From contig CAKKSE010000008.1 in the NCBI GenBank assembly GCA_919903025.1, positions 16,334 through 80,333 on the forward strand: a stretch of 64,000 nt of DNA, written 5' to 3'. Shown piece after piece: positions 10,384 to 55,460 of the stretch. How positions within the stretch are numbered: position 1 is the first letter of the stretch; every line of letters begins with the position of its first letter. Origin of the DNA: Nitrospiria bacterium (GTDB taxonomy: Bacteria; Nitrospirota; RBG-16-64-22). A program made the translations under genes and the position numbers. Under the pieces are notes generated by a model, which saw only the letters and a list, made by a program, of their open reading frames with translations, was not told the DNA's origin and did not search any database.

Positions 10384-10460
10384 TGGTAGCGGGGGCAGGA
10401 TTTGAACCTGCGGCCTTTGGGTTATGAGCCCAACGAGCTACCGGACTGCTCCACCCCGCG
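10384..10460 (-). tRNA. tRNA-Met (CAU anticodon; initiator-like 5' CGCGGGG acceptor)
   Basis: Reverse complement reads CGCGGGGTGGAGCAGTCCGGTAGCTCGTTGGGCTCATAACCCAAAGGCCGCAGGTTCAAATCCTGCCCCCGCTACCA. Cloverleaf is canonical and CCA is encoded. Confidence 0.85.
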
Positions 10461-16835: not shown

Positions 16836-16975
16836 ATACTTATATATATGTCAATGAATCCGCCGTCAAGTCTCGGCGGGTCCGGTGACCCGCCCTACGA
16901 AATTCGTCCGCTCACCCGACCGTAGGGCGGCACACCGTGCCCGCCCAACACCATGCGCGCCGCCCGGCCGCCGCC

Positions 16976-26987: not shown

Positions 26988-28250
26988 ATGGCGGAAGGAA
27001 TAAGCGGTTTCGTCGTCGTCGGCGTCATTCTGGCCGGCTCGATCGCAGCCTTCGTCATCGGCGCGATCATCGGCCGAAAAAAGGGCGCGGCCGAAGTCGA
27101 GCAATCCTTTAACCAGAACATCAAGCAGGTCGAGGCCCGCCTAGCCTCCGAGGGTTCTTTCCGGAAGGCGCTCCAGAACGAGATCGACTGGCTCAAAAAG
27201 GAGAACGAGCGGTACATCCACCTGTTCGTTACGTTCCCCGAGGCCGTCAAGCGCCTCAACTCCACCCAGTCGGTGGACGAAGTCTCCTCGGCCGTCGTCC
27301 GCCTGGCGAAGATGCTCATCGACGCGGACGAGATCAGCCTCTTCTTCTACAAGGAGGCCGAGAACGAGCTCCGCATCGCCCTGGCCTTCGGGATCAAGCG
27401 CGAGCAGGCCGAGGGGCTCCGCGTGCCGTTCGGCGAGGGGATGATCGGGACGGCGGCCGAGACCCGCGTCCTCCTCTCCGAGAACGAATACCGGACCAAC
27501 CCCGAATACGTCGAAAAGAGGGCCCGCGCGCGGGAGACGCGGATCGTGTCCACCTACGCCGCGCCGATCGTCTGCAAGGAAAAGCTCTACGGCGTCCTCA
27601 ACATCGGGAACATCAAGAACCGCACGGGAAACGAGCGGAAATTCCTGGCCATGATCTCCGACCTGGCCGCCGTCTCGCTGGAGAACGCCCTCACGCTCTC
27701 GGGGACGAGAACGGAGGCGACGACCGATCCCCTCACGAGCCTCTACAACCGGCGTTACTTCCAGGAGCGCCTCGTCGAGGAAGTCCAGCGCTCCCGGACG
27801 TACAACGTCCCTCTTTCCGTCTTCATGATGGACATCGACAACTTCAAGCACTACAACGACAACAACGGCCACCCGGAGGGCGACAGGCTCCTCAAGGCGG
27901 TCTCCAAGCTCATCCGGGACAACACGCGCAAGACCTCCATCGTCGCCCGCTACGGCGGCGAGGAGTTCATCGTCCTTCTTCCCGACACTCCCAAGGAAGG
28001 CGCCATGGCCTACGCGGAGAAGATGCGATCGCTCATCTCGGGGACGGAGTTCCCGCACGGCGACAACCAGCCGCTCAGGTGCATCTCGGTCTCCGGGGGC
28101 GTCGCCACGTTTCCCTTCGACGGGGACTCGGGCGACGAGATCGTCCGCCGCGCCGACGAGGGGCTCTACCAGAGCAAGGAGCGGGGGAGGAACCGCGTCA
28201 CCCCCTACGAGCCGCCCGCCTTCCACAAGATGACCCTGCCGGGAGACTGA
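26988..28250 (+). CDS. GAF-GGDEF diguanylate cyclase (membrane-anchored)
   Basis: N-terminal TM segment, coiled coil, GAF domain and a GGDEF domain with an intact RYGGEEF active site. Confidence 0.85.
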   Translation: MAEGISGFVVVGVILAGSIAAFVIGAIIGRKKGAAEVEQSFNQNIKQVEARLASEGSFRKALQNEIDWLKKENERYIHLFVTFPEAVKRLNSTQSVDEVSSAVVRLAKMLIDADEISLFFYKEAENELRIALAFGIKREQAEGLRVPFGEGMIGTAAETRVLLSENEYRTNPEYVEKRARARETRIVSTYAAPIVCKEKLYGVLNIGNIKNRTGNERKFLAMISDLAAVSLENALTLSGTRTEATTDPLTSLYNRRYFQERLVEEVQRSRTYNVPLSVFMMDIDNFKHYNDNNGHPEGDRLLKAVSKLIRDNTRKTSIVARYGGEEFIVLLPDTPKEGAMAYAEKMRSLISGTEFPHGDNQPLRCISVSGGVATFPFDGDSGDEIVRRADEGLYQSKERGRNRVTPYEPPAFHKMTLPGD

Positions 28251-28251
28251 C

Positions 28252-28635
28252 TTGACGAGAGAGAAGTTCGAGCGCCTCGTCGCGGAGGCCCTGGACGGCC
28301 TCCCCCTCAAGTTCCGCGAGAAGATGGCCAACATCGCCGTCACCGTCGAGAGCTGGCCCTCTCACGAGGACCTGGAATCGGTCGGCCTCGACCCGGAAGA
28401 AGACGCCCTCTACGGCCTCTACCACGGCGTCCCCCTTCCCGAGCGTGAATTCAACTACGGAAACACCCTCCCCGACCGGATTGTCCTGTACCAGGACGTG
28501 ATCGAAGAGGACGCCGCGGACGAGGACGAAATCCGCGAGATCGTCCAGGAGACCGTCGTCCACGAAGTCGGCCATTACTTCGGCCTCTCGGACGAGGAGA
28601 TGGAGGAATGGGAGGCGGGGGGGTGGAGGGAATAG
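28252..28635 (+). CDS. Zincin-like metallopeptidase-family protein (PF06262-like), TTG start
   Basis: HEVGHYFG is an HExxH motif. Acidic C-terminus. 127 aa. Confidence 0.55.
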   Translation: MTREKFERLVAEALDGLPLKFREKMANIAVTVESWPSHEDLESVGLDPEEDALYGLYHGVPLPEREFNYGNTLPDRIVLYQDVIEEDAADEDEIREIVQETVVHEVGHYFGLSDEEMEEWEAGGWRE

Positions 28636-28706: not shown

Positions 28707-29759
28707 CTATTTCCGCCATCTCTGCGTCTTCCGCCACGCCGCGCTCTGTCCGCGTCCAAGGCACTCGATGCGGCCGTCCGATTTCAGGTTTTTCAAAACG
28801 CGCCGGATCAAGTCGATGCTCACGCCCGGACATAGCCTCTGAATCTCCGCCACACGAAAGGCATCGGACATTTCGTCAATCGCACGGGCCACAAGCTCCG
28901 ACTTTTCTCCCTTGGGGCTCTTGACCTGCCCCATGCGTTCCTCGAATTCCAGGTAAGCGGTCTTGAGGATGTAAAGAAGGTAATTCACATACGGCCAAGG
29001 ATCATTCTTCCCTTCATGCCATTTCGTGGAACTCTGCTCAAGCGTCTCGTAATAGCGTTCTTTATTCTGCTCGATGAGGCGTTCCAGACTGATATACCGG
29101 CCGACTTCATATCCGAGGTGATGGCATTGGAGCAGGAGCAACAGCCGCGACACCCGGCCATTGCCGTCCCTGAACGGATGAATACAGAGAAAATCCAGAT
29201 TGAACGCGGCCATCGCGATCAACGGGTGAATCTTGCGCTCCTCAAGGCTCGCGTCCCAGAGCACGGCTAAAGTCTTCATGGCACCGGGGGTTTTCGCGGC
29301 CGGCAAGGTCTTGAAACGGATGCGGGATGTGCCGTCCGGACGCTTTTCGATGATATCCCCGTCTTTTTCCTTGTACTTGCCGGCATCCCAGATTTCCCCG
29401 CGAGCCAGCCGGTGCAAACGCAGGATCGTCTCTTCGGTAATCGGAAGCCTCGGCCCTTTCTCATGGATCAGGGCCAGCGCTTCCCGATAACCATGCACTT
29501 CCTCTTCGTTCCGGTCTCGGAGAAGTGGCCTGCCGAAAACGAGCGTCTCGATGCGCGCCCTCTCCACCTCCACCCCCTCGATCCGGTTCGACGAAACCGT
29601 GCTCTCGATCAACGCGTGCTCGCGCAACACCTTCAAGCGCTGGGGTGATTGCCGCGTGAACAACTCCTGTTTGCCGCGCGCCTCGCCGAGATCGGTGAGA
29701 TACCACGAGGTTGTTACCGGAATGCTCTCGTGCTTCGCCAAGAGCTGGCGCAATGTCAT
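28707..29759 (-). CDS. Fic family protein (class II; N-terminal inhibitory SxxxEG helix) with a C-terminal wHTH
   Basis: HPFRDGNGRVSR Fic motif. TVSSNRIEGVEV is the inhibitory motif. Start trimmed to the Met at 29757-29759. Confidence 0.8.
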   Translation of the reverse strand: MTLRQLLAKHESIPVTTSWYLTDLGEARGKQELFTRQSPQRLKVLREHALIESTVSSNRIEGVEVERARIETLVFGRPLLRDRNEEEVHGYREALALIHEKGPRLPITEETILRLHRLARGEIWDAGKYKEKDGDIIEKRPDGTSRIRFKTLPAAKTPGAMKTLAVLWDASLEERKIHPLIAMAAFNLDFLCIHPFRDGNGRVSRLLLLLQCHHLGYEVGRYISLERLIEQNKERYYETLEQSSTKWHEGKNDPWPYVNYLLYILKTAYLEFEERMGQVKSPKGEKSELVARAIDEMSDAFRVAEIQRLCPGVSIDLIRRVLKNLKSDGRIECLGRGQSAAWRKTQRWRK

Positions 29760-29971: not shown

Positions 29972-30070
29972 GGGAGCGGCTCGGTCACTGGTGGACCGCT
30001 AGGTCTTCAAAACCCATGTGGGGTGCTGAGAGGCGCTCCAGGTGGGTTCGATTCCCACACGCTCCCGCCA
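29972..30070 (+). tRNA. tRNA-like gene with selenocysteine-tRNA architecture (UCA anticodon, long extra arm), a candidate selC or a pseudo-tRNA
   Basis: Hand-folded from the sequence. The 7-bp acceptor GGGAGCG/CGCTCCC is followed by a G8·A mismatch abutting the T-stem, giving 8/5 geometry. The D-stem is CGGTC/GACCG. The anticodon arm has loop CTTCAAA, identical to the E. coli tRNA-Sec loop. The extra arm is an 8-bp stem (3 G·U pairs) with a GAGA tetraloop. The T-arm is GTGGG-TTCGATT-CCCAC, with G73 and an encoded CCA. Total length is 99 nt. Confidence 0.45.
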
Positions 30071-30399
30071 GATTCTCTTTGTTTCCAGGGTCGCCCCCAC
30101 TGGTCAACGCCATCAATCGTTCGCTTCCATCGTCTTTTCGCCCCCGCCGCCCTCTTTCGCACCAGATGAGGAACGCTGACGGCTTTGCAGAACGAGCGTC
30201 CAGCAGACCGTCGGCTTCCACTCCTCAGGGGCTCCGCCGGCCTTCCGATCCTCTCTCAGGATCTTGCGGAGTTCCCGCCAGTCCTCCCGCGTCCACCTGT
30301 ACCCCTCGCTCCGGTCTTCGCTCCGTGTATTCCCGTTCCGGCACATGCCCTATCCCCCCTTGCGAACCGGCCGCCCAAGACGGGTAACACAGGGTCCGT

Positions 30400-32619
30400 C
30401 TACTCAAACTCGATCTTTACATCGTTGGAGAGGTTCAGATCGGCCAGAATCTGCTGAAGTTCGGTCTGCAGGGACCGGGCCGAATCTGCGCTGGTGGTCA
30501 CCGAGAACTCTACACCGATACGCAGATCGGAGCCCGATCTGAGCTTCGGAATGATCTTGGTTCCCAGCCTGTTCCAGTGCTCCGGAGGGATCGTGCCGAC
30601 CACTCTGAGCGTCCGCGTTTCCTGAGCAGGTCCCTTTGTAATGCCGGGAAGCGACGTGAGTATTTCCGGTTCCGCCTCGGGTAGACGTTCCGGCCCTTTC
30701 ACGACGACCCCAACCTTCAACGCCTCGGCCCTCGCCTTCGTCAGGAGGAAGACCCCGCTGTCGAACACAATCTCCTCCGGCGCGACAACCTCCTTAAACC
30801 AGACCCTCTCGTATTCTCCATCCGTCCTCAATCCCGACGCCAGGCCCAAGCTTCCCTTGTCCACGAACTCAGAGATCTTGCTCCTCAAGACCTGTTCGGG
30901 ATCCACGAGACGGGTCAGCGCCCCGGTCAGAAAACTCTGGCGGAGGCTCGCCAGCGGCCAGGCACTGGTTTCCTTGAAAGCGGGCGGCCAGTTCCGCTCT
31001 ATGCAGCCGGCTCCCACGGATTCGTTTAGAAGCGAGTATGACTTGAGAGCGGAGATAATCCGGCCGGCCAGCGTCTCACTGGCGCTCGCGTGTCCCGCAC
31101 CGAGGTCAATGATTTTGAGCCCGCTTGCTTCACCAGGATCCGCAAGCGCCACGCACCGATAGCTGGCCCATACTTCGGCCTTTGCGGACTCCTCGGCGTC
31201 CCTGACGCGCGTGTGCAGTTCAAGCCGGTCGGACCGGTCGAAGTCGCCGCCCAGGATGCCTTCATCCACGTCTCTTTTCACGCGCCTCCAAGCGAGCCAT
31301 GTCTCGACCTTCTCGCGGAGGTCCCGGCCGGGCTTCTTGACGCACCAGACGAGCGCCGCTGGATACAGCCGGTCGGAAGACCCCCGCCTCTTCGTCCACT
31401 CAAGAACCCTCTTTGGCACGTCCCCTTTCGCTTCCCACTCGATCTCCGGAGACGTAACCACGAGTGTCAGCCTGGGGGAATCCTGGATTTCAGACGCATC
31501 CGCCGGAAAGGGGGCCCAGGAGATGCTTCGCCCCCGGTCGAATTCGACTTTGACAACCAACTCCATGGCAGGCCGGATTTCGTTCTCCTCGTCAAGAGAG
31601 GCCCGTCTGTCGCTCACGACCTTCTTCAAAGTCGGCAGGTAGCCGATCCGAAAGCCATCGGTTCCCGCCTTCCGTACGTAGTAGGCTTTCGACTCGAGCG
31701 CCAGGGCGGCAGTGTCGATGGATGTCGTGTCGGTCCCTGGCTCGCCCAGGGCGAACCTCAGCTCCGGGAGATGTGCGACCCGGTCCAGTTGTCCCCCGGA
31801 CGATTCGAAGAGAATGGCTGTCGCTACCCGCCTATGAATGCCGCGCAGCAACCCCTTGGCATCCGCATCGAGCACGCGGGTATGCGCGTTGGCGCCGGCA
31901 ATGTCGGTATCGATCGCGGCGACCAGGCGGGATTCTCCCAGTTGACCGAGCACGATGCTTCGGAACTCCGGTACTTCGAGCGGCGCCGAGCCGAGAGTAA
32001 TTAGCGGCTCTGTTCTTGCCTTCTGGAAGCCTTCCCGCCAGTCGCAATGCACATAGATGCTTCCATCATCCGCCAACAAATCACGCATCAACACCAATCT
32101 CTCGTAGATCATGGCTATAAAGGAATCTGCGCCCTTCCCCCACGTATCGCGGTAGGCGAGTTCTTCGAGAATGCTCGGCTTCTTGGTAAAGGTGTCGTCG
32201 CCAATTTCGATGTCCATCGAGAAGTCCGCGCCCACGTCGAACGGCGGATCGATGTAGATCAGCTTGATGCCGCCCTGCTTCTCGATTTCCTCATGCAACG
32301 GACCATTCTTGAGGCTGGCGAGAATCAGCTTGTTGTCGCCCCAGATCAGCTTGTTGGTCCAGCCCTTGAGCTGCCGCCCACTGGCGGGGTCGAACAGGTC
32401 GCCCTGAATCTTTACGTCCTTCTCCGCCCGCGGCTCGTCCACCTGCTCGATAGTCTGAAACGGCAGCACCACATTGCAGACCCCATTCGTTTTGCCGTTC
32501 CATACCAACTCCACCTCGCGCTTCTCCTCGAACAATAGAAAGCGGTACTTCTCCGGCAGCGGCTTGCCGGCCTCCAGCAGTTTCACAATGTCGCGGATTT
32601 CGTTGTCGGTTAGCTTCAT
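30400..32619 (-). CDS. Mod-like N6-adenine DNA methyltransferase-domain protein with a roughly 480-aa uncharacterised C-terminal region (canonical FxGxGTT motif I not evident)
   Basis: N-terminal 200 aa include NKLIWGDNKLILASL and GGIKLIYIDPPF (motif IV, DPPY-type), then SIYVHCDWR. This matches the beta-class Mod/N6_N4_Mtase order. The start overlaps the stop of the upstream ATPase (ATGA). Confidence 0.6.
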   Translation of the reverse strand: MKLTDNEIRDIVKLLEAGKPLPEKYRFLLFEEKREVELVWNGKTNGVCNVVLPFQTIEQVDEPRAEKDVKIQGDLFDPASGRQLKGWTNKLIWGDNKLILASLKNGPLHEEIEKQGGIKLIYIDPPFDVGADFSMDIEIGDDTFTKKPSILEELAYRDTWGKGADSFIAMIYERLVLMRDLLADDGSIYVHCDWREGFQKARTEPLITLGSAPLEVPEFRSIVLGQLGESRLVAAIDTDIAGANAHTRVLDADAKGLLRGIHRRVATAILFESSGGQLDRVAHLPELRFALGEPGTDTTSIDTAALALESKAYYVRKAGTDGFRIGYLPTLKKVVSDRRASLDEENEIRPAMELVVKVEFDRGRSISWAPFPADASEIQDSPRLTLVVTSPEIEWEAKGDVPKRVLEWTKRRGSSDRLYPAALVWCVKKPGRDLREKVETWLAWRRVKRDVDEGILGGDFDRSDRLELHTRVRDAEESAKAEVWASYRCVALADPGEASGLKIIDLGAGHASASETLAGRIISALKSYSLLNESVGAGCIERNWPPAFKETSAWPLASLRQSFLTGALTRLVDPEQVLRSKISEFVDKGSLGLASGLRTDGEYERVWFKEVVAPEEIVFDSGVFLLTKARAEALKVGVVVKGPERLPEAEPEILTSLPGITKGPAQETRTLRVVGTIPPEHWNRLGTKIIPKLRSGSDLRIGVEFSVTTSADSARSLQTELQQILADLNLSNDVKIEFE

Positions 32620-35297
32620 GATCCACCCACCAAATGCGCAGCTTGTGTGTTCTTCTTCAGATGCGCATGCTGCTCTTGTGCTTTTTCCGCCTTATCTTTC
32701 TGCTTGCTCAAAAAATCCTTGAACGACTCAAGATCGGCGGTCATCTCTTTGGTCGTTGGTAATGATGTATTCGCGGCAACGGCGTGGTCATGCAAGTCAA
32801 CAATTGACGATGCGCGCGTCATTCCGGCGAACACCGATTCGACCGACTCAAAATCTACGCGAACACCGGTTAAGCTCTGTGTCTTAATCTCGTTTTCCAA
32901 TCTCTGTAACACTTTATTAAACAGGATCTCCTCCACCGAGCGCTCCCACGTTGAACGCAGTAGTACGTAGTACTCACGATTCAGCTTCCTGTAATCGTCA
33001 GGGTTGCCAGCGGTTTCTGCTGCTTTTGCGTCCGCAAGCAGTTTATCCAGGTGATGTACGCGCAGCGCCACTTTGGAGCCAGACCATGGCAGAAAGCGGG
33101 TAACGATTCCGGTGGCGTTACCAAGCGCCTCAATGTTCTGCGGCGAAATCTCGGTGCCCTGATGGTCGGCGTCGGCTTCCTCCCACAAATCGCGAAGGAA
33201 GACGAGATCGTGCGTGAAGATGATGACTTGCCTTGTCCTTGCCTCTTTGACTAAAAGCCGGACAACACCACCGCGGATGCGGTGGTCGAGGGAGGTTACC
33301 GGATCATCCAGGATGATTCCGCAATTATCGTCATTCGCACTCAGTTCAGCCAGAAAGCAGGCGAGCGAGATGGCTGTCCGCTCGCCTTCACTAAATACCG
33401 CCTCGGGATTGCCCAGCGTGGCTCCTTCGATGGTTACCTTGTGGAGAACCTTGCCTTTGCCGCCCGGTTGCCGTTCGACGCCGAGCCGAGCTCTATCCAG
33501 GCCGATGTCTTTGAGATTATTAAGCATCTGGGTCTTGAACGCGTCGGTAACGAGTCGTTGCTGGAGTTCGCCCGCTTTCAGGGCAATCTTGTTCGTCGTG
33601 ATCTTGTCAGCCGCCGCTTTTTCAGCTTCGGCCAGCTTCAGGCTGCGCAAATGAGCGAGGACTGAAGCGAGATTTTGATTCAATTTAAGGCGGGCCTTGA
33701 GTTCGGCTATTTCCGCTTCGAGTAGCCGTATTTGCTCAGTTACTTTGGCATCATCGGCAAGCTCCTTGAGCCGTTCCCCAATGGCTTTGATCTCCGCGTC
33801 ACAGGCCTGCGCTGGTGACATTGGCTCAGGCGGCAGTTCTTCCCATTGGCGGGATTTGGCCGCTTCTTCGATGGCGGTAAGTCTGTTTGTTGCGGCTGGA
33901 AAGAAAACCTTGAGTTCTTCGAAGATTGTCGAACCGGCCGCCTTCAAAGAATCCTCAAGAACTTCGATTTCCTTCGGCATACCGTGCGGCAGTTCTGCCA
34001 ATGCCTTCCGCTCCGCTTCAGCATTTAGGGCTGCTGCATCGCGCTTGCTTGATACATCGTCCTGAATGAACTTCCAAAACCCTTCCAGCCGGAGCCGCGC
34101 TGCCTCATCAAGCGGTTGCAGGCAGAGCACGCATTTGGCGCCTTCTTGACTGGCTGGGAAGGGTTGGCCTGGGTATGCTACCTGCGTCGAATACTTCTCT
34201 GCGGCCATTAGTAGCTCGCGCCACACGTCACCGCCGACATCTTTCATTTCGAGGCCGCCGAACGTGGCCTTCGCGGCGACTTCAACGGCCTGCTCGCACT
34301 TCTGCAACTCGGCGATCTTGCCATTTATCTCGGTGACCCGGGCTGCTGAGATACCGTTCAGCATCGAGGATACGCTGGACTTGATTGTTTCCAGCCGTTT
34401 CTTCTGCGCGAGAAGCGAAGCTCGCAGAACCTGCGGTGAATTGGCCTTGAGTTGGGATAGTTCCTGTTCCTTGGCCTTGAGAGTCTCAGTATTTTGTTCT
34501 GTCCACTCGGCCCGTTTCTTTACATCGTCTTCCGATGTGCGCGCACCGATTGCCCCGATGAATTTGCCCGTAGCCGTGGTGTCCACAAGATGACTGAGCG
34601 CGTCCGGTTTCGGCGCATGCTGGGTAGCAAGGTCTTGAAGGCGTTTCTTGACCTCGGCAGTAATGTCGCCAAGCCCCCTGATGATGTCGAAACCATAGGG
34701 CAGGAAACTCAGCTCGTTGCTGCCCGTAATGTAGATGCGCGCGCACTTGGAATCGAACACCGCGAAGCGGCTGAGGCCGCTGGACGAGGGCGAGCCGTCA
34801 ATCCATTTTTCGTCGCGGACTTTGCCGGTCTCTTCGATCTCAAAAATTGCGGATGCGGGCCCCGTTTTCGCTGAAGCGTAGACATTGGGCAAGATGTCAT
34901 CGACCACACGCGCATGAAACGCCTTTTTCATCACACGGGCGTAACCAGACTTGCCGGACGCATTGTGGCCGTAGATCACGGTAAGCTGTTTGCCGATGGG
35001 CAGGCGCTGACCGTCTTTTAGCGCATTCACGTTTTCCAGGTCGCGCACCCCGACAAGGGCCAGTTTCTGACCAGGCACTGGTGGCGGAGGCAGGTCAGCG
35101 TTTTTCAACATCAGGTCGCCGAGAGGTGCAGCCGCCTTCTTTAGCCCGTGCTCGACAAGCGCGATATCGAATATTTCGTCTCTGTCTTTCTGCGGCAGTG
35201 AGCCACTTTTGGCGAACATCCGACGAATCGCCTCGTTTTGCCAAGGGGCCAAGTCCTTCGACAAGCTCAACAGTTCGGAAAATATATTGTTCGCCAT
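32616..35297 (-). CDS. AAA_13-family ABC-type ATPase, RloC-like (putative anticodon nuclease with a Rad50-like coiled coil and CxxC zinc hook)
   Basis: Walker A GHNASGKS. A roughly 400-aa coiled-coil insert containing KCVLCLQPL (CxxC). Then the signature, Walker B and D-loop (ILDDPVTSLD) and an H-loop (FTHD). The C-terminal roughly 200 aa are a non-ATPase domain, as in PrrC/RloC anticodon nucleases. Confidence 0.55.
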   Translation of the reverse strand: MANNIFSELLSLSKDLAPWQNEAIRRMFAKSGSLPQKDRDEIFDIALVEHGLKKAAAPLGDLMLKNADLPPPPVPGQKLALVGVRDLENVNALKDGQRLPIGKQLTVIYGHNASGKSGYARVMKKAFHARVVDDILPNVYASAKTGPASAIFEIEETGKVRDEKWIDGSPSSSGLSRFAVFDSKCARIYITGSNELSFLPYGFDIIRGLGDITAEVKKRLQDLATQHAPKPDALSHLVDTTATGKFIGAIGARTSEDDVKKRAEWTEQNTETLKAKEQELSQLKANSPQVLRASLLAQKKRLETIKSSVSSMLNGISAARVTEINGKIAELQKCEQAVEVAAKATFGGLEMKDVGGDVWRELLMAAEKYSTQVAYPGQPFPASQEGAKCVLCLQPLDEAARLRLEGFWKFIQDDVSSKRDAAALNAEAERKALAELPHGMPKEIEVLEDSLKAAGSTIFEELKVFFPAATNRLTAIEEAAKSRQWEELPPEPMSPAQACDAEIKAIGERLKELADDAKVTEQIRLLEAEIAELKARLKLNQNLASVLAHLRSLKLAEAEKAAADKITTNKIALKAGELQQRLVTDAFKTQMLNNLKDIGLDRARLGVERQPGGKGKVLHKVTIEGATLGNPEAVFSEGERTAISLACFLAELSANDDNCGIILDDPVTSLDHRIRGGVVRLLVKEARTRQVIIFTHDLVFLRDLWEEADADHQGTEISPQNIEALGNATGIVTRFLPWSGSKVALRVHHLDKLLADAKAAETAGNPDDYRKLNREYYVLLRSTWERSVEEILFNKVLQRLENEIKTQSLTGVRVDFESVESVFAGMTRASSIVDLHDHAVAANTSLPTTKEMTADLESFKDFLSKQKDKAEKAQEQHAHLKKNTQAAHLVGGS

Positions 35298-35377
35298 AGG
35301 AAACGCTGCTGGTTAGTAGTGCGTAAGCCTACAATCGCGGAATCTTCCGATGTTTTCGATACTGATAAATTTCTCAA

Positions 35378-36676
35378 TCATGGCTCACCGCTCTTGTCCG
35401 GCACCGCGTCTATGGGAGTAGATGCCTCAAGTGCCTTCATTTCCAGACCTTCGATCTCCTGCAACGACTTGCCCGCGATGCCTTGCAGGTCCCCATACAT
35501 TCCGACGGTTGACTGCATGACGCGGTCGATCTGCTCCTCGCGCTTGGCCCACTGCTTGGTGATCGCCTTCCTCTCCTTGTCGAGGTCTTCCTGCATGTTG
35601 GAAAACGCTTCGACGATGGCTTCCACCCTCTGGCGGAAGCGCGGGCCGGTGAGGTACTGGTAGATCATTTCCGTTTTTGTTTGCTGGCCTTCGGATGCCT
35701 GCCGCGCTATGGTGATTTCCAGCAACGACTGGCGAAGGATTACCGCCACCGGCAATGCAACGCGGGGGTGTGTTACCCAGACGCCCTCAACCATCTCGAA
35801 GGTTTCAACCCCTTTCGGCAAACTCTGGCTTACAATCACGGCGATTTCAGCTTTTGCGGTGCGTTGGTCTTCCCGCAATTTGGTCAGCCATGCGTCGCTC
35901 CAGTTTTTGGTGCGCTTGGACTCCCACAGGATGGTGCCGCTGGCCTGGCCGCCCGAGCCGACAACACGGTGCACCACATCCCCGCCGTATTCGCCCTTGG
36001 GCACGGGCTCGATAACATCGAAAGGGAATTTAGTGCGCAACAGACTTTCTAGTTCCAGTTCCTGCACTTCGCCCTGCAATTGCTGCGAGCCTTGTTCAGC
36101 CTTGCGTTTCAGGTCTTCAATCTGTTTCTGCATCGCGGCGATGATCTGTTCTTTCTCCATCACCTTAAGCTTCTGTTCGTCTTCGACCTCCTTGCGCGCC
36201 TGGACACGGGTAGCGGCAAGCCCTTCCTGAATCCGCTTCTCGATGGTCAGTTCTATTTCACGTCGGGCATCATCAAGCTCGCGCTGTTTGCGGATCAGGT
36301 CAGCCTGTGCCTTCTGCGCCTCGGCGAGTTTCACGTCCCGTTGTTTCAGCACTTCTTGCAGATCGGCAAGCTCCTTGCTCTTCTGATCCAGATCGTTCGC
36401 CAGCGCTAATTTGGCTTTCTTGGCTTCCTCCGCGGCGATCTTGGCGCGTTCCTGCCGAACCTTCTCGGCGACCTGATCGTCGATGGTGTCTTTCGCCTTG
36501 GTGAGTGCTTCTTCACGCTCACGGAGCGACGATTCGCGGCTGGCAATGTCAGCGTCTTTCTTTGCCAGGCGCTGCTCATAGTCACGGCGAGTGGATTCAA
36601 TGAGTGGCGCCGCCAGTGATTCCGTGAGTTTGATCTCGGTTTTGCACTGCGGGCAGACAATAGTTGGTTCTGTCAT
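35378..36676 (-). CDS. DUF2130-family protein (N-terminal CPxC zinc ribbon, long coiled coil, conserved C-terminal domain)
   Basis: MTEPTIVCPQCKTEI..., then KE-rich coiled coil, then a C-terminal globular domain of about 200 aa. Own AT-rich promoter region at 36680-36750. Confidence 0.55.
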   Translation of the reverse strand: MTEPTIVCPQCKTEIKLTESLAAPLIESTRRDYEQRLAKKDADIASRESSLREREEALTKAKDTIDDQVAEKVRQERAKIAAEEAKKAKLALANDLDQKSKELADLQEVLKQRDVKLAEAQKAQADLIRKQRELDDARREIELTIEKRIQEGLAATRVQARKEVEDEQKLKVMEKEQIIAAMQKQIEDLKRKAEQGSQQLQGEVQELELESLLRTKFPFDVIEPVPKGEYGGDVVHRVVGSGGQASGTILWESKRTKNWSDAWLTKLREDQRTAKAEIAVIVSQSLPKGVETFEMVEGVWVTHPRVALPVAVILRQSLLEITIARQASEGQQTKTEMIYQYLTGPRFRQRVEAIVEAFSNMQEDLDKERKAITKQWAKREEQIDRVMQSTVGMYGDLQGIAGKSLQEIEGLEMKALEASTPIDAVPDKSGEP

Positions 36677-36755
36677 CGACCTCTCCTTAACTCACTGAAA
36701 TTCGCTTTCCGAAATCAATTCCGGGAATCTTATAAAATTCTTCCTGACTCGGCGG

Positions 36756-37100
36756 TTACCTGTATTCGATACAAATTGCTATCCCCGCCACGATCTCCTC
36801 CATCAGCGGTTCGGGGAGCTGCCCCAGCTTCTTGACCAAACGGGTTTGGTCAACGGAACGGACCTGGAACGTATCCGCCCCCGACTTCTTGGTGAGGCCG
36901 TTCTGTTTGTCAGGTTCAAGGTAAATCATCCACGGGTAGCCGGCATATGGCGGTTTCCAGTCCGTGATGGGGACGATGATCTTCAAAGGCAGTTTGCCAA
37001 TGCTGTTGGAACTCACCACGACGGCGGGCCGGGTCTTCTTGATTTCCTGTCCAATGGTCGGATCGAGATTGACCAGCCACACCTCTCCACGGTCAATCAT
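36756..37100 (-). CDS. MazF/PemK/Kid-family toxin (mRNA interferase)
   Basis: GEVWLVNLDPTIGQEIKKTRPAVVVSSNSIGKLP is the PemK signature. Overlaps the upstream gene by a few codons. Confidence 0.75.
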   Translation of the reverse strand: MIDRGEVWLVNLDPTIGQEIKKTRPAVVVSSNSIGKLPLKIIVPITDWKPPYAGYPWMIYLEPDKQNGLTKKSGADTFQVRSVDQTRLVKKLGQLPEPLMEEIVAGIAICIEYR

Positions 37101-38295
37101 TGACCGCCCCGTCAAGTTCGGTGAAGGCGGTCAGCTCTTTGTCTGTTTCGTACTCGTGCACCGCGCGTTCCGCCGCCGCTTCGAGCAGTGTGCGGCGTTC
37201 GTCCAGCGACAGCGCGGCGATCTTCTTGGCCTTGGTCATTTCTCCCTCCTTACCGTTCAGCGATACTACGCCGGGATTCAATTCCTCGGCTCGCTCACGG
37301 GAGATAATGCCTTCCGCCATCGCTCGCAGCACGAGCTGTTTGAAGCGTAGCGGCTGTTCCGGTGCGACTTGCTTGCCGGGCTCGTGCTTGTGCCATCTAC
37401 GTTTGCGAAAAATGACCACGGTGTTCTTGTACCAGCTTGGCGTGATAATCCCGAGGTCCTTTGCGCGCCGCAACCAGGCCTGCATGCTCAAGCCGTATTT
37501 GTGTTTTAGCAGCAGCAGTTCATCGAACTCGATACGGCTTCGAGACCTACCAAGCTCCATGTATGCCGCTTCATCCGGCACCAAGAAGGCCGCGGCAAAG
37601 CGATGAGCGATATCCTCGTCTTCTTTCGGTTGTTTCTGCTTTATTACCAAATGCCCAAGTTCGTGGGTGAGATTGAACCGCTGACGATCTCCGGACATGG
37701 CGGCATTGGTGACAAGTACCGGAACCTTTCCCCCGTCGTCACCGAGAACCGTCGCCCAGGCTGAATGGCCGTCGAATCGCTCATCGGCATCCAGCGCCAA
37801 TACCGCGGCGGCGTGGTCTTCGAGTGTTTCGGCTAGATTCTCGATGGGGTCCAGACCGATTTTCCAAACCTCTCTAAGCTCTTTGGCGATTTTCTCTGCA
37901 TCGTCCACAGACTTCGCTTGTCGGGGTTTCGGAATGCCGGCCGCCGCGCGCCATTCGAGTTTCCTGTCGGCGGGGAACAGGGCGGCCAACCAACAATAGT
38001 GTTCGAGGTGATCGGAGATCTGTACTTGCAGCCGACTGGCCTCGGCCTTGGGCAAGCGGCTGTGTTTGCGGTAGGCGATGAACTCCACCTTGACCTTCGG
38101 TTCCTGCATGAAGTAGCTCGTCTTGACGCGCAGCGCATCAGCCAGACGCACGAGCACTTCCGGGCCTGGAACGCTCTTGCCGGTTTCGTACTTGGAAATG
38201 GCCTGCTTCGTGAGGAAGTGGTCCATCTTGGCTACCAGCGCGTCCATGGACAAACCTGCACCGAGCCTGGCCTGTTTCAACCGTTCGCCTATCAT
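37093..38295 (-). CDS. Xre-family HTH fused to an ImmA/IrrE (COG2856, M78) zinc peptidase domain, with a short C-terminal tail; predicted antitoxin/regulator partner of the MazF-like toxin
   Basis: N-terminal HTH_3 (LSMDALVAKMDHFLTKQAISKYETGK). Central HELGH (HExxH) with the downstream E typical of ImmA/IrrE. The last roughly 50 aa are charged/helical and overlap the toxin start. Confidence 0.7.
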   Translation of the reverse strand: MIGERLKQARLGAGLSMDALVAKMDHFLTKQAISKYETGKSVPGPEVLVRLADALRVKTSYFMQEPKVKVEFIAYRKHSRLPKAEASRLQVQISDHLEHYCWLAALFPADRKLEWRAAAGIPKPRQAKSVDDAEKIAKELREVWKIGLDPIENLAETLEDHAAAVLALDADERFDGHSAWATVLGDDGGKVPVLVTNAAMSGDRQRFNLTHELGHLVIKQKQPKEDEDIAHRFAAAFLVPDEAAYMELGRSRSRIEFDELLLLKHKYGLSMQAWLRRAKDLGIITPSWYKNTVVIFRKRRWHKHEPGKQVAPEQPLRFKQLVLRAMAEGIISRERAEELNPGVVSLNGKEGEMTKAKKIAALSLDERRTLLEAAAERAVHEYETDKELTAFTELDGAVND

Positions 38296-38307
38296 TCGAC
38301 CTCCGGT

Positions 38308-38390
38308 AGGTTGACGGAAAGGATTAGATTGACGAATTCGTCAACAGTTGACAGAATAACAAATAAGTTCCGTATTGTCAACCCATTGTC
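38308..38390. promoter_or_regulatory. Divergent promoter/operator region: perfect 16-bp palindrome TTGACGAATTCGTCAA plus inverted GTTGACA...TGTCAAC half-sites
   Basis: Read directly: palindrome at 38329-38344, GTTGACA at 38347-38353, TGTCAAC at 38376-38382, a further TTGAC at 38311. AT-rich. Confidence 0.5.
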
Positions 38391-38393
38391 GAG

Positions 38394-38576
38394 GTGGTCC
38401 ACATGGCAAAGAACCCACCACCCCGCGATAACCATCGCAAAGGCGCCGTTACCGGCCGTTCGCAGACTTACAACCCCAAGACCGACTCTTGGGTAAAGCG
38501 CGATACCGAAACCGGTCGGTTTATGGACCAGAAGTCCGATGACAAACCGTTCAAGGGCGTACGGAAAGAGAAATAG
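38394..38576 (+). CDS. Small basic hypothetical protein (60 aa)
   Basis: ORF lies immediately downstream of the operator region. Lys/Arg-rich. No recognisable family. Confidence 0.25.
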   Translation: MVHMAKNPPPRDNHRKGAVTGRSQTYNPKTDSWVKRDTETGRFMDQKSDDKPFKGVRKEK

Positions 38577-38627
38577 GATTTCGCACAAGCAGCCCCCCCG
38601 GACAAGTTCTCTCCCGGCCTCATGGTT

Positions 38628-38773
38628 GCCTGCGCGCCGCGCGCAAGCAGGCCGGTGATGATCCCGGGGTCTTCTTGCTTGCAGGCGCATGGTGGCGAGC
38701 GAAGCGAGCCACGATGCGCTTTACCCTGAAAGGGAGTCTGCCGGAGCGCCCGCCTGCGCGCCGCGCGCAGGCT
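38628..38773. repeat. Two copies of a GC-rich palindromic element GCCTGCGCGCCGCGCGCAGGC (REP-like, or bidirectional terminator hairpins)
   Basis: Copy 1 at 38628-38652 (with an AAGC insertion). Copy 2 at 38753-38773 is a perfect 21-bp palindrome. Confidence 0.45.
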
Positions 38774-38905
38774 GGGGGGGTTGCGGGGTTGTCGGTGGGC
38801 AGTGTCCGCGTCCGGCTCACGGCTCGCACCGCTAAAGAAAGTTCGAGCCTCGGTTAAGATGGTCCCGCCAGAGTCGTTGGGAGGAAGCGGTCAGGGTCCG
38901 CCCCG

Positions 38906-40156
38906 TCAGCCGGTGGGCGTTGCGGGTTGAGGCTCTTTGGCCGACTCGGGCTCCGGCTCCTTGTATTTCTCGTAGACCTCGAGTATCTCGTCTACCCCCT
39001 CGAAGAAAGCGTCCACGCAAACCGGGTCGAACTGCTTGCCGCGCTCCTGTCTCACCCACTCGATCACGTGGTCGAGGCTCATGGGGGGCTTGTAACAGCG
39101 GCGGGACGAGAGCGCGTCGAACACGTCGGCCAGGGAGACGACCCGCCCTTCCAGCGGAATCCGGTCGCCCCGCAGGCCGTAGGGGTACCCGGTGCCGTCG
39201 TAGTGCTCGTGGTGCGAGAGGGCCACGGACTTGGCCACGCGGATGAGGTCCGAGTCCGGGTTCCCGAGGATGTCGGCGCCGATGATCGTGTGGCCCTCCA
39301 TCACCTTCCGCTCGTCCTGCGTGAGCGGCCCCGGCTTCATGAGGATCGAATCGGGGACGCCGAGCTTCCCCACGTCGTGCATCGGCGAAGCGTAGAGGAG
39401 CAGGTCAATCTCTCCCTTGCTCCACCCCATGGCCTTCGAGATCAGGGCCGAGTACCGGCTCATCCTCTGGATGTGGTAGTAGGTGTCCCGGTCCCGGTAT
39501 TCGGCCGCGACCGACAGCCGTAGGATCGAGTCGAAGTGGGCCTTCTTGATCTGCGCCGTGAGATGGGCGTTCTTGAGAGCCACGGCGGCCTGGGACGCTA
39601 GGGATAGGACCAGTTCCTCGACCATCCCGGAGAACGCGACGGGCTTCCCGTGGGCGTCGAGCGCGTTGATGAGCTGGAGGACGCCGATCACCGTGTCCTG
39701 CGGGTCCTTGAGCGGCACGACCATGAGCGAGCGCGTCCTGTACATGTACCGCTCGTCGAACTCCTTGTTGAAGTGGTAAGGCTCCGAAGCGGGAATCTTG
39801 TAGGCGTCGCGGATGTTGAGTATCTGGCCGGTCGAAGCGACGTAGCCGGCGAGGCTCTGGTGGGAGATGGGGATCGTCCGGTTGAGGTATGGGTTCTTTT
39901 GAACGGCGCCGGCCTGGCGCTTCATGATCGTGTCGTTCTGAGACACGACGAACCGGAGGAGGCCGTCCTCGACGACATAGAGGCTTCCTGCGTCGGACCG
40001 CGTGAACCGTCTCGCTTCGGTGACGATCTGCTCGAGGAGAACGTCAAGATCGTGCTCGCTCGTGAGGGCGATGCCGATCTTGAGCAGATTGGAGATGAGC
40101 TGTTCGGTCCTTGAAGGGGCCATCGTCTTCTGAGAAATCCCCGCCGACACCGGCAT
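38906..40156 (-). CDS. GAF-domain HD-GYP phosphodiesterase
   Basis: GAF N-terminal domain. HD domain with HD...HHEHYDGTGYP (HD-GYP signature). Confidence 0.85.
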   Translation of the reverse strand: MPVSAGISQKTMAPSRTEQLISNLLKIGIALTSEHDLDVLLEQIVTEARRFTRSDAGSLYVVEDGLLRFVVSQNDTIMKRQAGAVQKNPYLNRTIPISHQSLAGYVASTGQILNIRDAYKIPASEPYHFNKEFDERYMYRTRSLMVVPLKDPQDTVIGVLQLINALDAHGKPVAFSGMVEELVLSLASQAAVALKNAHLTAQIKKAHFDSILRLSVAAEYRDRDTYYHIQRMSRYSALISKAMGWSKGEIDLLLYASPMHDVGKLGVPDSILMKPGPLTQDERKVMEGHTIIGADILGNPDSDLIRVAKSVALSHHEHYDGTGYPYGLRGDRIPLEGRVVSLADVFDALSSRRCYKPPMSLDHVIEWVRQERGKQFDPVCVDAFFEGVDEILEVYEKYKEPEPESAKEPQPATPTG

Positions 40157-43215: not shown

Positions 43216-44082
43216 ATGACCGAATCGCGCGAACTCAAGGTGGCGCTTGAGGCGGCCGATTCGGCGGGCGAGATCGTCCGCGGCTTCTACCGTCAGCGCT
43301 TCGACGTCTGGCAGAAGAGCAAGGACCAGCCGGTCACGGACGCGGATCTCGCCGCGGACAAGACCCTCAAGAGCGTCCTTCTTGGGGCCTTCCCCAACGA
43401 CGGGTGGCTCTCGGAGGAAACGGCCGATTCCCCCGAGCGCCTCTCGGTCCGGCGGCTCTGGGTCGTCGATCCGATCGACGGGACGAAGGAGTTCATCCGG
43501 GGCATTCCGGAGTTCTCGATCTCCATCGCCCTCGTGGAGGACGGACAGCCGATCGTCGGCGTCATCCAGAACCCGGTCACGGGCGAGACGTTCTCGGCAG
43601 CCCGCGGAAAAGGAGCGTCGCTGAACGGGCAGACAATCCGCGCGACGAAGACGCGGCGCTTCGCGGACGCGCTCATCATGACGAGCCACCGGGAGGTGAA
43701 GGCCAAGCGCATCTCGGCCGTGAAGGAAGAAGTCCGGGTCAAAGCGGTGGGGAGCACGGCCTACAAGATCGCCCTCGTCGCCGCCGGCCGGTGCGACCTC
43801 ATGGTCTCGTTCAAGCCGAAGAACGAGTGGGACGTGGCCGCGGGCGTCCTGATCGTCGAGGAAGCCGGAGGCCGCGTGACGGACCACGAGGGGAACGCGT
43901 TCCAGTTCAACCAGCCCGACACCATCCGCCCCAACCTCCTCGCCACGAACGGCCTCCTCCACGCCGCCGCCCTGCGGTTCATCCGGGACGTCAACCGACG
44001 AATCGATCTCGGCGTCACGAAGCCGGTTCAGCGTCCGTGCCGGCTTAAGCGGCCTTGCCGCCGCGTTTCTTCGCCTCCATAA
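43216..44082 (+). CDS. Inositol monophosphatase / 3'(2'),5'-bisphosphate nucleotidase (CysQ-like)
   Basis: IMPase motifs WVVDPIDGTKEF and a metal-binding DxE region. The C-terminal 30 aa may be a frame run-on. Confidence 0.75.
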   Translation: MTESRELKVALEAADSAGEIVRGFYRQRFDVWQKSKDQPVTDADLAADKTLKSVLLGAFPNDGWLSEETADSPERLSVRRLWVVDPIDGTKEFIRGIPEFSISIALVEDGQPIVGVIQNPVTGETFSAARGKGASLNGQTIRATKTRRFADALIMTSHREVKAKRISAVKEEVRVKAVGSTAYKIALVAAGRCDLMVSFKPKNEWDVAAGVLIVEEAGGRVTDHEGNAFQFNQPDTIRPNLLATNGLLHAAALRFIRDVNRRIDLGVTKPVQRPCRLKRPCRRVSSPP

Positions 44083-44320
44083 AGGCGCGGAGAAGCCGAT
44101 TGACGCGGGTCTGGTAGCCCCGGCCCTGGGCCCTGAACCAGTGGAGGACGTCCTTGTCGATTCGGATCGTGACGGTCTCCTTTTTCTTCGGCCACTCGAC
44201 GACAGCCTTCGTAAAGAACGAATCGTCAAGCGGAGGAATGTCGGAGTAGTCGATATCCCCGTCACTCATCGCGTCGAGTCTCTTCAAGTCGCTCTTGATA
44301 GATTTTCCTTTCGCGCGCAT
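44045..44320 (-). CDS. brnA: BrnA antitoxin (RHH/CopG-like, DUF-type)
   Basis: LKRLDAMSDGDIDYSDIPPLDDSFF is the conserved BrnA N-terminus. Downstream of brnT. Confidence 0.7.
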   Translation of the reverse strand: MRAKGKSIKSDLKRLDAMSDGDIDYSDIPPLDDSFFTKAVVEWPKKKETVTIRIDKDVLHWFRAQGRGYQTRVNRLLRAFMEAKKRGGKAA

Positions 44321-44552
44321 TGGCTTTCCTCATCGAAATGCCCCGCGTGGCATTGCCCCGCGGAGTATGGACCACGACGACGACACGGCCGGCCAGTGCT
44401 CCCAAGGAAATGAGACGCTCTTCGCCGTAGTCCGCCCGGTTATCCTCGAAGGTAACAGTGGGGCCGGCTAAGACGATGTCCGCGTCCTCGAAGCTCAGGC
44501 CGTGCTTCTTGAGATTCGCCCGGTTCTTCTTCTCGTCCCATCCTATTCTCAC
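44262..44552 (-). CDS. brnT: BrnT toxin (DUF497 ribonuclease), GTG start
   Basis: (M)RIGWDEKKNRANLKKHGLSFEDA...VVVVVHTPRG is the BrnT signature. Start set at the GTG at 44550-44552. Tandem TGTAAATA direct repeats lie upstream at 44564-44583. Confidence 0.7.
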   Translation of the reverse strand: MRIGWDEKKNRANLKKHGLSFEDADIVLAGPTVTFEDNRADYGEERLISLGALAGRVVVVVHTPRGNATRGISMRKANARERKIYQERLEETRRDE

Positions 44553-44625
44553 CGTAACGCAACTGTAAATACATTTGTAAATAACTGCAAGTTCTTCGGC
44601 CCCCAGCCCGGCCTGCCCGCCGGAA

Positions 44626-45420
44626 TCACCGCTGCGCCTTCTCCACCCGCACGACGTACCGATCATTCTTGAAAGCGAGGACCCGCGATTCGAACCTCTC
44701 CGCAAGGGCCGGTTCAACCTTCAGGCGGCGGAGAATGGCGAGATGGGCGTCGAACTCCTTTTCGCCTTGGGCCGCCGTTACGAGGACGCCGCCCGGCGTG
44801 AGGATCTTGAGGGCGTGGGCGAAGAAGGCCAAGGGATGAAGACGGTCGAGCGGCAGACCCCAGGCGAGGTGGGGAGTTTTCGTCACGAACGGGAAGAGGG
44901 CCGTGACGAGGTCCGCCGGGCCGGGCGCATCGAGAAAGTCCCCGGCAACGAACCGGGTCCCGGGCAGGAACGAGGCGTATCCGCGAGCGTGGTCGGCGCG
45001 GGAGCGGAGGTCGGTGTAGACACGGTAGGCGTCAATCTCGTATCCTGTCAGGGTAATCTTTCGCGTCCCGTGGATACGGAAGCGCTCCAGGAACCGGAAC
45101 AGGCCGAAGGCATAGAAGAAATTCTTGCACCCCGCGTCGATCCCGATTGCGGCCTCCCCATAGTTCCCCGTCCATCCCCGGTGGGCCGCCTCCAGGAGGT
45201 CCAGGAGATAGAGGTTCTCCAGGTAGGTCCTGAGGCGGGAGCGGGCCTTGAGGGGCGCCAGATCGTACCGGCCTTCCAGGTCGCGGATCCGGTCGGACGC
45301 CGGATGGTCGCGGAGAGAATCCTTCGGCTCGTTCCGCTCGACGAACGGCCCCCTCTGCCAGCGGACCTTTTGGCGAAGGCGGAAGAAGAAAGCGTTTCGG
45401 GCGGAGCGGATGGAGATCAT
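44626..45420 (-). CDS. Class I SAM-dependent methyltransferase-like protein (weak call)
   Basis: Roughly 265-aa ORF with IGIDAGCKNFFYAFGL (motif I-like) and plausible codon usage. The N-terminal extension of the longer ORF is antisense to mtgA. Its start overlaps the mtgA start by 11 nt. Confidence 0.4.
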   Translation of the reverse strand: MISIRSARNAFFFRLRQKVRWQRGPFVERNEPKDSLRDHPASDRIRDLEGRYDLAPLKARSRLRTYLENLYLLDLLEAAHRGWTGNYGEAAIGIDAGCKNFFYAFGLFRFLERFRIHGTRKITLTGYEIDAYRVYTDLRSRADHARGYASFLPGTRFVAGDFLDAPGPADLVTALFPFVTKTPHLAWGLPLDRLHPLAFFAHALKILTPGGVLVTAAQGEKEFDAHLAILRRLKVEPALAERFESRVLAFKNDRYVVRVEKAQR

Positions 45421-55222: not shown

Positions 55223-55460
55223 CGAGCGGGGCAACGCTTCCCCCAAGATATGGGCCACACCCACACAAAACCCGGATGCGCCGAAAAAGTATCTCACCCC
55301 AGCATCTCCTGGATTCCCGCTTTCGCGGGAATGGCGTGGAAGGGTGCGCGGGAGGTTTTTCAACAAGCTCCTATTGTTCGATCAGCCCCAATCTGATATT
55401 GATTGACCGGCGCATCCGGGAGTGACCCCATCTGTCACGGACGTCTGCTACCCTTTCACC

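Follow-up and report, generated by a model that had tools for sequence, protein, structure and literature searches.

A probable decayed defence island at the 3′ end of the tRNA-Sec gene in a groundwater Nitrospirota bacterium

The stretch of DNA analysed here (64,000 nucleotides (nt) of contig CAKKSE010000008.1 from a Nitrospiria bacterium, in the following called the window) contains an intact gene for the selenocysteine tRNA (tRNA-Sec, selC). The gene is separated from a conserved GAF/HD-GYP gene by a DNA segment that two lineages of relatives lack at the same site. With a probability of about 80%, we regard this segment (30063–38862; 8,800 bp from core to core, one copy of a short flanking repeat counted) as horizontally acquired DNA which was recombined into the 3′ end of tRNA-Sec, and which survives as a decayed mosaic defence island resembling a cis-mobilizable element (CIME). 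An earlier note on this DNA had proposed a decayed integrative element or defence island; the absence of an integrase, the predominance of matches to defence families and the presence of fused gene fragments agree with this proposal.

Insertion at the tRNA-Sec gene

ARAGORN identifies two tRNA genes in the window, one of which is a tRNA-SeC with anticodon TCA. The Rfam model for tRNA-Sec (RF01852) matches positions 29972–30066 with 70 bits against a gathering score of 47 (E = 5.9e-13), and both methods accept the fold that had been read as a selenocysteine tRNA from the letters alone. The last 30 nt of the gene are the same in three relatives (contigs L019, L020 and L022), and its 5′ half varies at a few positions.

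The 3′ terminus of the tRNA is included in a direct repeat, the two copies of which (TCCCGCCAGATTC and TCCCGCCAGAGTC, designated as attachment cores attL and attR) are identical at 12 of 13 positions. The earlier note had reported this degree of matching correctly, but had placed the second copy at 38861–38873, 2 nt to the left of its true position (Table 1). It had also named the occurrence of the 13-mer at many unrelated places as an argument against an insertion; in the window, matches with at most one mismatch are found just at the two junctions (mean of shuffled sequences: 0.22). Taken alone, such a repeat is only suggestive, and it becomes solid evidence of an insertion because of the comparative data from relatives described below. 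A longer duplication of the tRNA was considered at 38780–38862, where GTTCGAGCC resembles a T-arm by eye. Since the alignment of this segment to the 3′ half of the tRNA scores 13, below the shuffle mean of 17.6, the repeat is limited to the 13-mer.

Relatives were gathered by a scan of genome collections and from the members of a 90% cluster of the HD-GYP protein. In the core region used for comparison (the HD-GYP gene and the TldD/PmbA genes that follow it on the right flank), identity to the window amounts to 99.8% in L026, 96.2% in L027, 92.1% in L019, 90.6% in L022 and 90.0% in L020, and L022 and L020 are 97.1% identical to each other. The HD-GYP gene of the window shares 96.7–97.2% identity with those of L027, L033 and L034, and no obvious drop of identity to L027 is seen in the HD-GYP flank beside the island. 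The HD-GYP and Fic proteins are also encoded on many contigs from Hainich groundwater metagenomes and other samples, and these contigs are approximately 100% identical to the window.

Empty sites are present in two of these lineages, in which tRNA-Sec stands directly beside the HD-GYP gene, the arrangement that the earlier note had suggested looking for. In the closest lineage (about 96%, as measured on L027; L027, L028, L033 and L034, from four sequencing runs), tRNA-Sec is located 33–35 nt from the HD-GYP stop codon, and the junction reads CGCTCCCGCCAGAATCGTCGGGAGAAAGCGGAAAGGTCGTCCGCGCG (also given as CACACGCTCCCGCCAGAATCGTCGGGAGAAAGCGGAAAGGTCGTCCGCGCG) followed by TCA of the stop codon. In the lineage with about 90.6% identity (L022, L023 and L024), the end of tRNA-Sec lies 33 nt from this stop codon; the junction, which L025 has as well, reads TCCCGCCAGAATCTCCGGGAGGACAGGGAACGGGCCGCGCG followed by TCA. 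On the other side of the tRNA, L022 and L024 carry the Fic, Zincin_1 and GGDEF genes, matching the left flank of the window. None of the three findings that the earlier note had named as refuting its interpretation was made.

Positions 38863–38905 of the window read TCCCGCCAGAGTCGTTGGGAGGAAGCGGTCAGGGTCCGCCCCG followed by TCA and are homologous to the tRNA end and spacer of the empty sites. Between 38863 and 38890, 25 of 28 aligned positions are identical to the empty site of L027 (TCCCGCCAGAATCGTCGGGAGAAAGCGG). On the left side, the window equals L027 at 29 of 29 positions through TCCCGCCAGA and L022 at 36 of 37 positions through GATTCTC, and the sequences diverge right after the core (30075). 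Hence the tRNA is completed by the left core copy, and the right one represents the original end, displaced together with the native spacer. This continuity of tRNA end and spacer on the right, together with the divergence on the left, therefore identifies the segment between the cores as DNA inserted at the 3′ end of the tRNA, the 13-bp core having been duplicated.

We hypothesize that a copy of TCCCGCCAGAnTC was already present on the incoming DNA, and that a crossover within the 13-bp core rebuilt an intact tRNA at attL. The original tRNA end would thereby have been pushed 8.8 kb away together with its 30-nt spacer, to its present place beside the HD-GYP gene (attR). A site-specific integrase is the most likely recombinase. 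This enzyme would have acted on a core-bearing attachment site of the element (attP), and would afterwards have been lost or else be provided in trans. Subsequent decay and remodelling included an internal deletion that fused fragments of the genes Mod and HmaC. Decay is evident from this fusion and from the mosaic of base composition.

The AT-richer tract is real, but it is uneven and does not coincide with the inserted segment. The GC fraction is 0.635 in the window, 0.555 in 32041–38600, 0.618 (near that of the host) in 30071–32040, 0.676 in 38601–38862 and 0.575 in the Fic gene. The AT-rich region of the earlier note (28.65–38.6 kb) thus holds for 32.0–38.6 kb, and does not hold for the host-like first 2 kb of the insert. 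Nor does the low-GC Fic gene (28.7–29.8 kb) belong to the island, since it lies outside the insertion and is present in L022, which has an empty site. The Fic protein shares only about 70% amino acid (aa) identity with its L022 orthologue, the neighbouring genes being 88–94% identical at the nucleotide level, and a short N/C-terminal remnant of the gene is left in L019 (L019 9289–9522). Located outside the insertion, it seems to be a defence gene with fast turnover.

Table 1. Features of the insertion and of its flanks, in window coordinates
Feature	Position	Strand	Remarks
GGDEF/GAF gene	26988–28250	+	
Zincin_1 gene	28252–28635	+	
SoFic-like Fic gene	28707–29759	−	5′ of tRNA; Pfam Fic; PADLOC SoFic 1.2e-30
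tRNA-Sec (selC) gene	29972–30070	+	Intact; putative integration target; ARAGORN and Rfam
attL core TCCCGCCAGATTC	30063–30075	+	Last 8 nt of tRNA and 5 nt downstream
77-aa open reading frame (ORF)	30113–30346	−	Possibly not a real gene; called as gene in metagenome contigs
739-aa chimeric ORF	30400–32619	−	Mod N-terminal fragment and HmaC/DUF499 C-terminal fragment
893-aa AAA_13 ABC-type ATPase, PDC-S06	32616–35297	−	PADLOC PDC-S06 8e-184, end to end; Pfam AAA_13 3e-21
DUF2130 protein, 432 aa	35378–36676	−	Pfam DUF2130 1.6e-80; zinc-ribbon-like N-terminus; predicted coiled coil
MazF/PemK-family toxin, 114 aa as called	36756–37100	−	Pfam PemK_toxin 7.6e-27; NCBIfam MazF/ChpB below cutoff
RmrA-type antitoxin/regulator, 400 aa	37093–38295	−	Pfam HTH_3 and Peptidase_M78; PADLOC RmrA 2e-44; NCBIfam spr1629 below cutoff
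PDC-S38 gene, 57 aa	38403–38576	+	Divergent from RmrA; PADLOC 2.6e-33, 57/57 positions; phrog_12550 5.5e-23; called in contigs
GC-rich imperfect inverted-repeat structure, about 190 nt	38590–38785	.	C7/G7 runs and two palindrome copies
Right-arm segment beside attR	38805–38859	+	87.5% identical to L019 segment, inverted there beside tRNA-Sec
attR core TCCCGCCAGAGTC	38863–38875	+	Displaced original tRNA 3′ end; continuous with native sequence per empty sites
Native spacer	38876–38905	+	Original tRNA end to HD-GYP stop codon; outside insert
GAF/HD-GYP gene	38906–40156	−	Pfam; conserved right flank; syntenic in all relatives

Cargo and signs of decay

A clear sign of decay is the 739-aa ORF. PADLOC assigns its residues 36–195 to MTase_III (6.7e-45) and its residues 200–609 to HmaC. 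In tblastn, residues 1–192 share 85% identity with the N-terminal part of a complete Mod protein (757 aa) in L029, and similarity ends there. The Mod part (residues 1 to about 195) contains DPPF at residue 124, and the remainder of the domain is missing; accordingly, the Pfam profile N6_N4_Mtase is matched at positions 1–60 of 221 only, with 26.0 bits, below the cutoff of 26.7. Residues from about 196 to 739 match the C-terminal part (about 545 residues, from about 376 to the end) of proteins of 910–980 aa found by a representative search. These homologues are full-length HmaC/DUF499 AAA+ ATPases, the ATPase core of which spans residues of about 164–377 (164–377 in P0258), and the 739-aa ORF is without this N-terminal core. 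One of the full-length homologues is part of a typical Hma locus with an SNF2 helicase and DUF1156. The fusion point, at about 32.04 kb (32035–32045), coincides with the step in GC content.

These matches show the 739-aa ORF to be no methyltransferase but the scar of an in-frame deletion by which fragments of two genes were joined, such that the earlier reading of 30400–32619 as a methyltransferase has to be replaced by that of a truncated Mod fused to a fragment of HmaC. Of a type III Mod and of an Hma system, the island holds fragments only. What was deleted presumably comprised the remaining part of Mod, perhaps also Res, and the partners in the Hma system, and it seems plausible that an integrase module was lost through a similar deletion. 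A gene call identical to this 739-aa ORF is found in at least three independent assemblies; an automated annotation would wrongly take the ORF for a DNA methylase. The small 77-aa ORF between this gene and the tRNA has no matches in Pfam, PADLOC, NCBIfam or PHROGs.

The remaining cargo genes match their family profiles over the whole or the greater part of the length. The putative ATPase PDC-S06 displays a Walker A motif (GHNASGKS, residue 110), a signature motif (SEGE, residue 636) and a Walker B motif (LDDP, residue 663; 636–666 together). It had been described as RloC-like. RloC and PrrC are anticodon nucleases linked to restriction-modification genes. In common with them, the window protein is an AAA_13 ATPase with a CxxC motif (CVLC at residue 389) in a central region that is, by sequence only, rich in E, K, A, L, Q and R (59% of residues), and it neighbours a Mod gene, as does its homologue in L029 (full Mod and ResIII helicase). 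In contrast to them, its best family is the uncharacterised PDC-S06, and the PADLOC match to PrrC is weak (5e-4) and confined to residues 661–709, which is the ATPase signature region. Hence, the label RloC-like is unproven. Homologues with 73–89% identity are found in three contexts: upstream of a full type III Mod with KilA-N, Bro-N and ResIII (L029 1437–10477), after AbiEi/AbiEii, and with a Mod remnant of 68 aa only; the latter two are provided by L031 (1942–6442) and L030 (3596–6471). Judging from these loci, the association of PDC-S06 with Mod recurs, and is not obligatory.

The C-terminal domain of DUF2130 has been assigned to the PD-(D/E)XK nuclease superfamily (PMC3424549). The DUF2130 protein has no match in PADLOC, and a search for relatives with solved structures returned generic ABC ATPase matches or noise only, for both this protein and PDC-S06. 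The gene of the MazF/PemK-family toxin overlaps the 3′ end of the RmrA gene. RmrA combines an Xre helix-turn-helix (HTH) domain with a zinc peptidase of the ImmA/IrrE type (M78), which is the architecture by which the antitoxin of Rosmer is recognised. Rosmer was described by Millman and coworkers, the original toxin being without known function (Millman et al., 2022; bioRxiv 10.1101/2022.05.11.491447). The island resembles defence islands with Rosmer toxin-antitoxin (TA), SoFic and PADLOC candidate systems in its clustered defence-type modules, in the Xre HTH and zinc peptidase antitoxin, and in a SoFic-like gene across the tRNA. It differs from them in that the toxin partner of RmrA belongs to the MazF/PemK RNases, with no match to the RmrT model reported by PADLOC.

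PDC-S38, next to RmrA, is conserved in L019 with 81% aa identity. An ORF of 132 aa on the minus strand (38292–38690), which overlaps PDC-S38 and has no matches, is probably spurious. Promoter-like hexamers face both ways at 38329–38381. Overall, the predicted cargo is of defence type (PDC-S06, the nuclease-fold DUF2130, the Rosmer-like RmrA/MazF module and PDC-S38). This is in line with the earlier list of cargo as far as DUF2130, MazF with Xre–ImmA and the defence-type content are concerned, and departs from it in the methyltransferase.

Occupancy of the slot and alternative explanations

The interval between selC and the HD-GYP gene is filled differently among the relatives. In L020, a BrnT/BrnA pair (0.72 kb) separates the CCA end from the HD-GYP stop codon; the empty L022 shares 97% identity with this relative. 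The slot of L019 holds a remnant of 2.9 kb that has PDC-S38, RmrA (92% aa identity) and MazF (94% aa identity) in common with the window (87.6% nucleotide identity in the Rosmer module), and that is without the 6.6 kb closest to the tRNA in the window. In L035, the HD-GYP gene is 97.2% identical to that of the window and has a different neighbour, an Xre/HigA-like HTH gene. This gene is followed by TTCGATTCCCACACGCTCCCGCCA, a piece of the tRNA 3′ end (24 nt, beginning in the T-loop), and by the native spacer. ARAGORN finds no whole tRNA in L035, the contig being short and the rest of the element beyond its end. We interpret this junction (region L035 1403–1778) as the right end of another element, in which more of the same tRNA has been retained. 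Among relatives with 90–97% identity, the slot holds at least four independent contents, and the interval between selC and the HD-GYP gene is a recurrent insertion hotspot in this Nitrospirota lineage.

L019 is also rearranged. The right arm of the island and a CCGCCA core are found there in inverted orientation (L019 8895–9016), 55 nt downstream of an intact tRNA-Sec. The flank of this inverted unit is an inverted copy of the tRNA flank, and the unit forms an inverted repeat of about 24 nt with the tRNA end and its flank. The Rosmer module of L019 abuts the HD-GYP stop codon, and the sequence corresponding to window positions 38754–38903 is missing. A repeat was not found in the slot of L020. 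Spacer-like fragments in L019 and L020 were considered as evidence of inversion, yielded weak scores, and are left unexplained.

In agreement with the earlier note, the four profile libraries used (Pfam, NCBIfam, PHROGs and PADLOC) disclose no integrase or excisionase in the ORFs of the island, small ORFs at its ends included. The scanned ORFs in the rest of the window were negative, too, as were gene tables covering 18.7–50.2 kb. Models of transposases, relaxases and resolvases give no match in the island, its surroundings and the scanned ORFs of the window, and domains of type IV secretion systems or coupling proteins were not found among the island ORFs. ORFs of at least 60 aa in 30071–30400 and 38577–38862 give no Pfam or PHROGs match that would point to an integrase pseudogene. 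A copy of the tRNA 3′ half or of the right arm in a phage or other element was sought with 0 matches in scans of viral contigs, and a metagenome scan with the tRNA 3′ half returned the L020 contig only. Neither viral nor metagenome scans yielded a circular junction or an attP.

Two routes to a parent element were followed and abandoned. The homologues of PDC-S06 lie in unrelated defence contexts (AbiE; Mod with KilA-N, Bro-N and ResIII; alone). A homologue of HmaC with 66% identity is followed by DUF3489 and a small serine recombinase, and its flank is without similarity to the window. An internal attachment site between DUF2130 and MazF, as expected for stepwise accretion, was unconvincing as well, given that the 11-mer in question, with two mismatches, occurs 73 times in the window.

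Several of these observations weigh against the interpretation of the segment as a decayed island inserted by site-specific recombination. A recombinase was not identified, leaving the enzymatic step to inference, and viral, metagenome and homologue scans did not reveal a close, integrase-bearing copy of the island in other places. The core is short (13 bp with one mismatch), and neither an excised circle nor an attP was seen. PDC-S06 and PDC-S38 are candidate defence families only. L019 and L020 are without a clean attR and the arm in L019 is inverted, rearrangements for which the model offers no explanation. Finally, the pattern of occurrence is patchy: the closest lineage (L027) is empty, and the more distant L019 has the Rosmer module. 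This pattern requires that the island was excised or precisely lost on the branch of L027, or else that it moved from one lineage to another.

We consider it unlikely that the island is still mobile, as a satellite or CIME whose attachment sites serve an integrase acting in trans, the gene of which would lie in another part of the genome or on a helper element. In such a case, the target would consist of the 13-bp core, the right arm (38805–38859, a candidate recombination arm) and the palindromes, and the empty site of the lineage with about 96% identity would result from precise excision. Both attachment cores are almost intact, the right arm is 87.5% conserved in L019, and the empty site of the closest lineage has a single clean core; moreover, CIMEs can be mobilised together with incoming elements (PMC5704250). 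On the other hand, no integrase is encoded among the scanned ORFs of the 64-kb window, the scans for a circular junction or attP were negative, and all contigs read from the window's own population (16 of 16) carry the island or end within it. It is likewise doubtful, to the same degree, that an integrase-free defence cassette is moved in and out of the 3′ end of tRNA-Sec by a recombinase in trans, with the inverted arm of L019 and the different states of occupancy being footprints of ongoing, sometimes aberrant recombination. If true, this would constitute a site of defence-cargo shuffling in Nitrospirota, working like a one-cassette integron or a CIME.

The palindromes named above are part of the GC-rich structure at the right end of the island (fold z-score of 38590–38785: −2.5). 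The palindrome GCCTGCGCGCCGCGCGCAGGC (21–25 nt) is present in two copies (38628–38652 and 38748–38772), and its core occurs nowhere else in the window; the previous designation of this structure as an operator is unproven. Inside the structure, at 38739/38749, lie the ends of at least five metagenome or Logan contigs, and breaks at 30069 occur as well. Such breaks in several assemblies might speak for mobility. However, they fall at the GC-rich palindrome, such that strain variation is not needed to explain them. As proof of strain heterogeneity they are ambiguous, since they coincide with the GC-rich palindrome and with the conserved tRNA end.

A further alternative, which we judge quite improbable, is that the cargo is exchanged purely by homologous recombination in the conserved flanks and that the 13-mer is fortuitous or irrelevant. 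The existence of at least four states of occupancy, the lack of a clean repeat in L019 and L020 and the patchy presence of the island may be cited in its favour, as may a nearby TA slot at about 44–45 kb, which varies without any tRNA. However, the second core stands exactly where the native sequence resumes, as predicted by site-specific insertion and not by flank exchange, and L035 provides an independent attR with a partial tRNA at the same gene. Homologous recombination may well spread the island; the origin of the duplication is left unexplained by such exchange. An insertion of the transposon type (e.g. Tn7-like, downstream of a tRNA) may practically be dismissed: a short direct duplication does flank the insert, and some transposon families home to tRNA-proximal sites, but no inverted repeats link the two ends in a repeat search, no transposase or Tns genes were found, and a 13-bp duplication that includes the CCA end of a tRNA is typical of an attachment core and not of known target-site duplications.

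Known elements and further observations

Islands and prophages linked to selC are established in Enterobacteria, e.g. the locus of enterocyte effacement (LEE), the Shigella island SHI-2 and the retronphage phiR73 (reviewed in PMC2704930 and PMC7545054). The island of the window shares with them the 3′ end of tRNA(Sec) as the site, a direct repeat with the tRNA terminus, a rebuilt tRNA, atypical base composition, accessory cargo and the existence of empty sites. In contrast to them, it is without an integrase gene, its core comprises only 13 bp at the acceptor/CCA end, its host is an uncultured groundwater member of the Nitrospirota, and its cargo relates to defence instead of virulence. A CIME is defined by the retention of attL and attR in the absence of genes for integration and transfer (PMC5704250). 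Operationally, the island fits this definition, with attachment cores kept, recombination genes absent, internal decay, and a tRNA 3′ end also used by other elements (L035). Unlike a typical CIME, its ORFs contain no relic of conjugation or mobilisation genes that would tie it to an integrative and conjugative or integrative and mobilizable element.

The island is thus a tRNA-linked genomic island of a well-known kind, real but ordinary, and reveals no new mechanism. Its value lies in a comparatively validated selC insertion hotspot outside the Proteobacteria, for which empty, differently filled and decayed states were all obtained from metagenomes. The occurrence of PDC-S06, PDC-S38 and DUF2130 together with a Rosmer-like RmrA/MazF module in one mobile context is mildly useful for annotation through guilt by association.

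Some further observations concern other parts of the window. The TA slot mentioned above is hypervariable (window 44045–45420, about 5 kb from the island) and is located between inositol-monophosphatase and transglycosylase genes, with no tRNA. It holds BrnA only in the window, BrnT and BrnA in L026 (5491–6112), BrnA and DUF488 in L027 (1743–2571), and Gp49/HTH, two PIN TA pairs and DUF4160/DUF2442 in L022 (1–5700). A GC-rich element of 52 nt (containing GTAGGGCGGCACACCGTGCCCGCCC) is found in the window (16898–16949) and in L019 (9259–9310) at unrelated positions with 92% identity, and has the look of a dispersed repeat of the repetitive extragenic palindromic type. A tRNA-Met gene (10384–10460, minus strand) adjoins the gene of a sigma-54 response regulator. 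An AddAB-like pair on the plus strand (55422–62028) encodes a PD-(D/E)XK nuclease and a UvrD helicase-nuclease.

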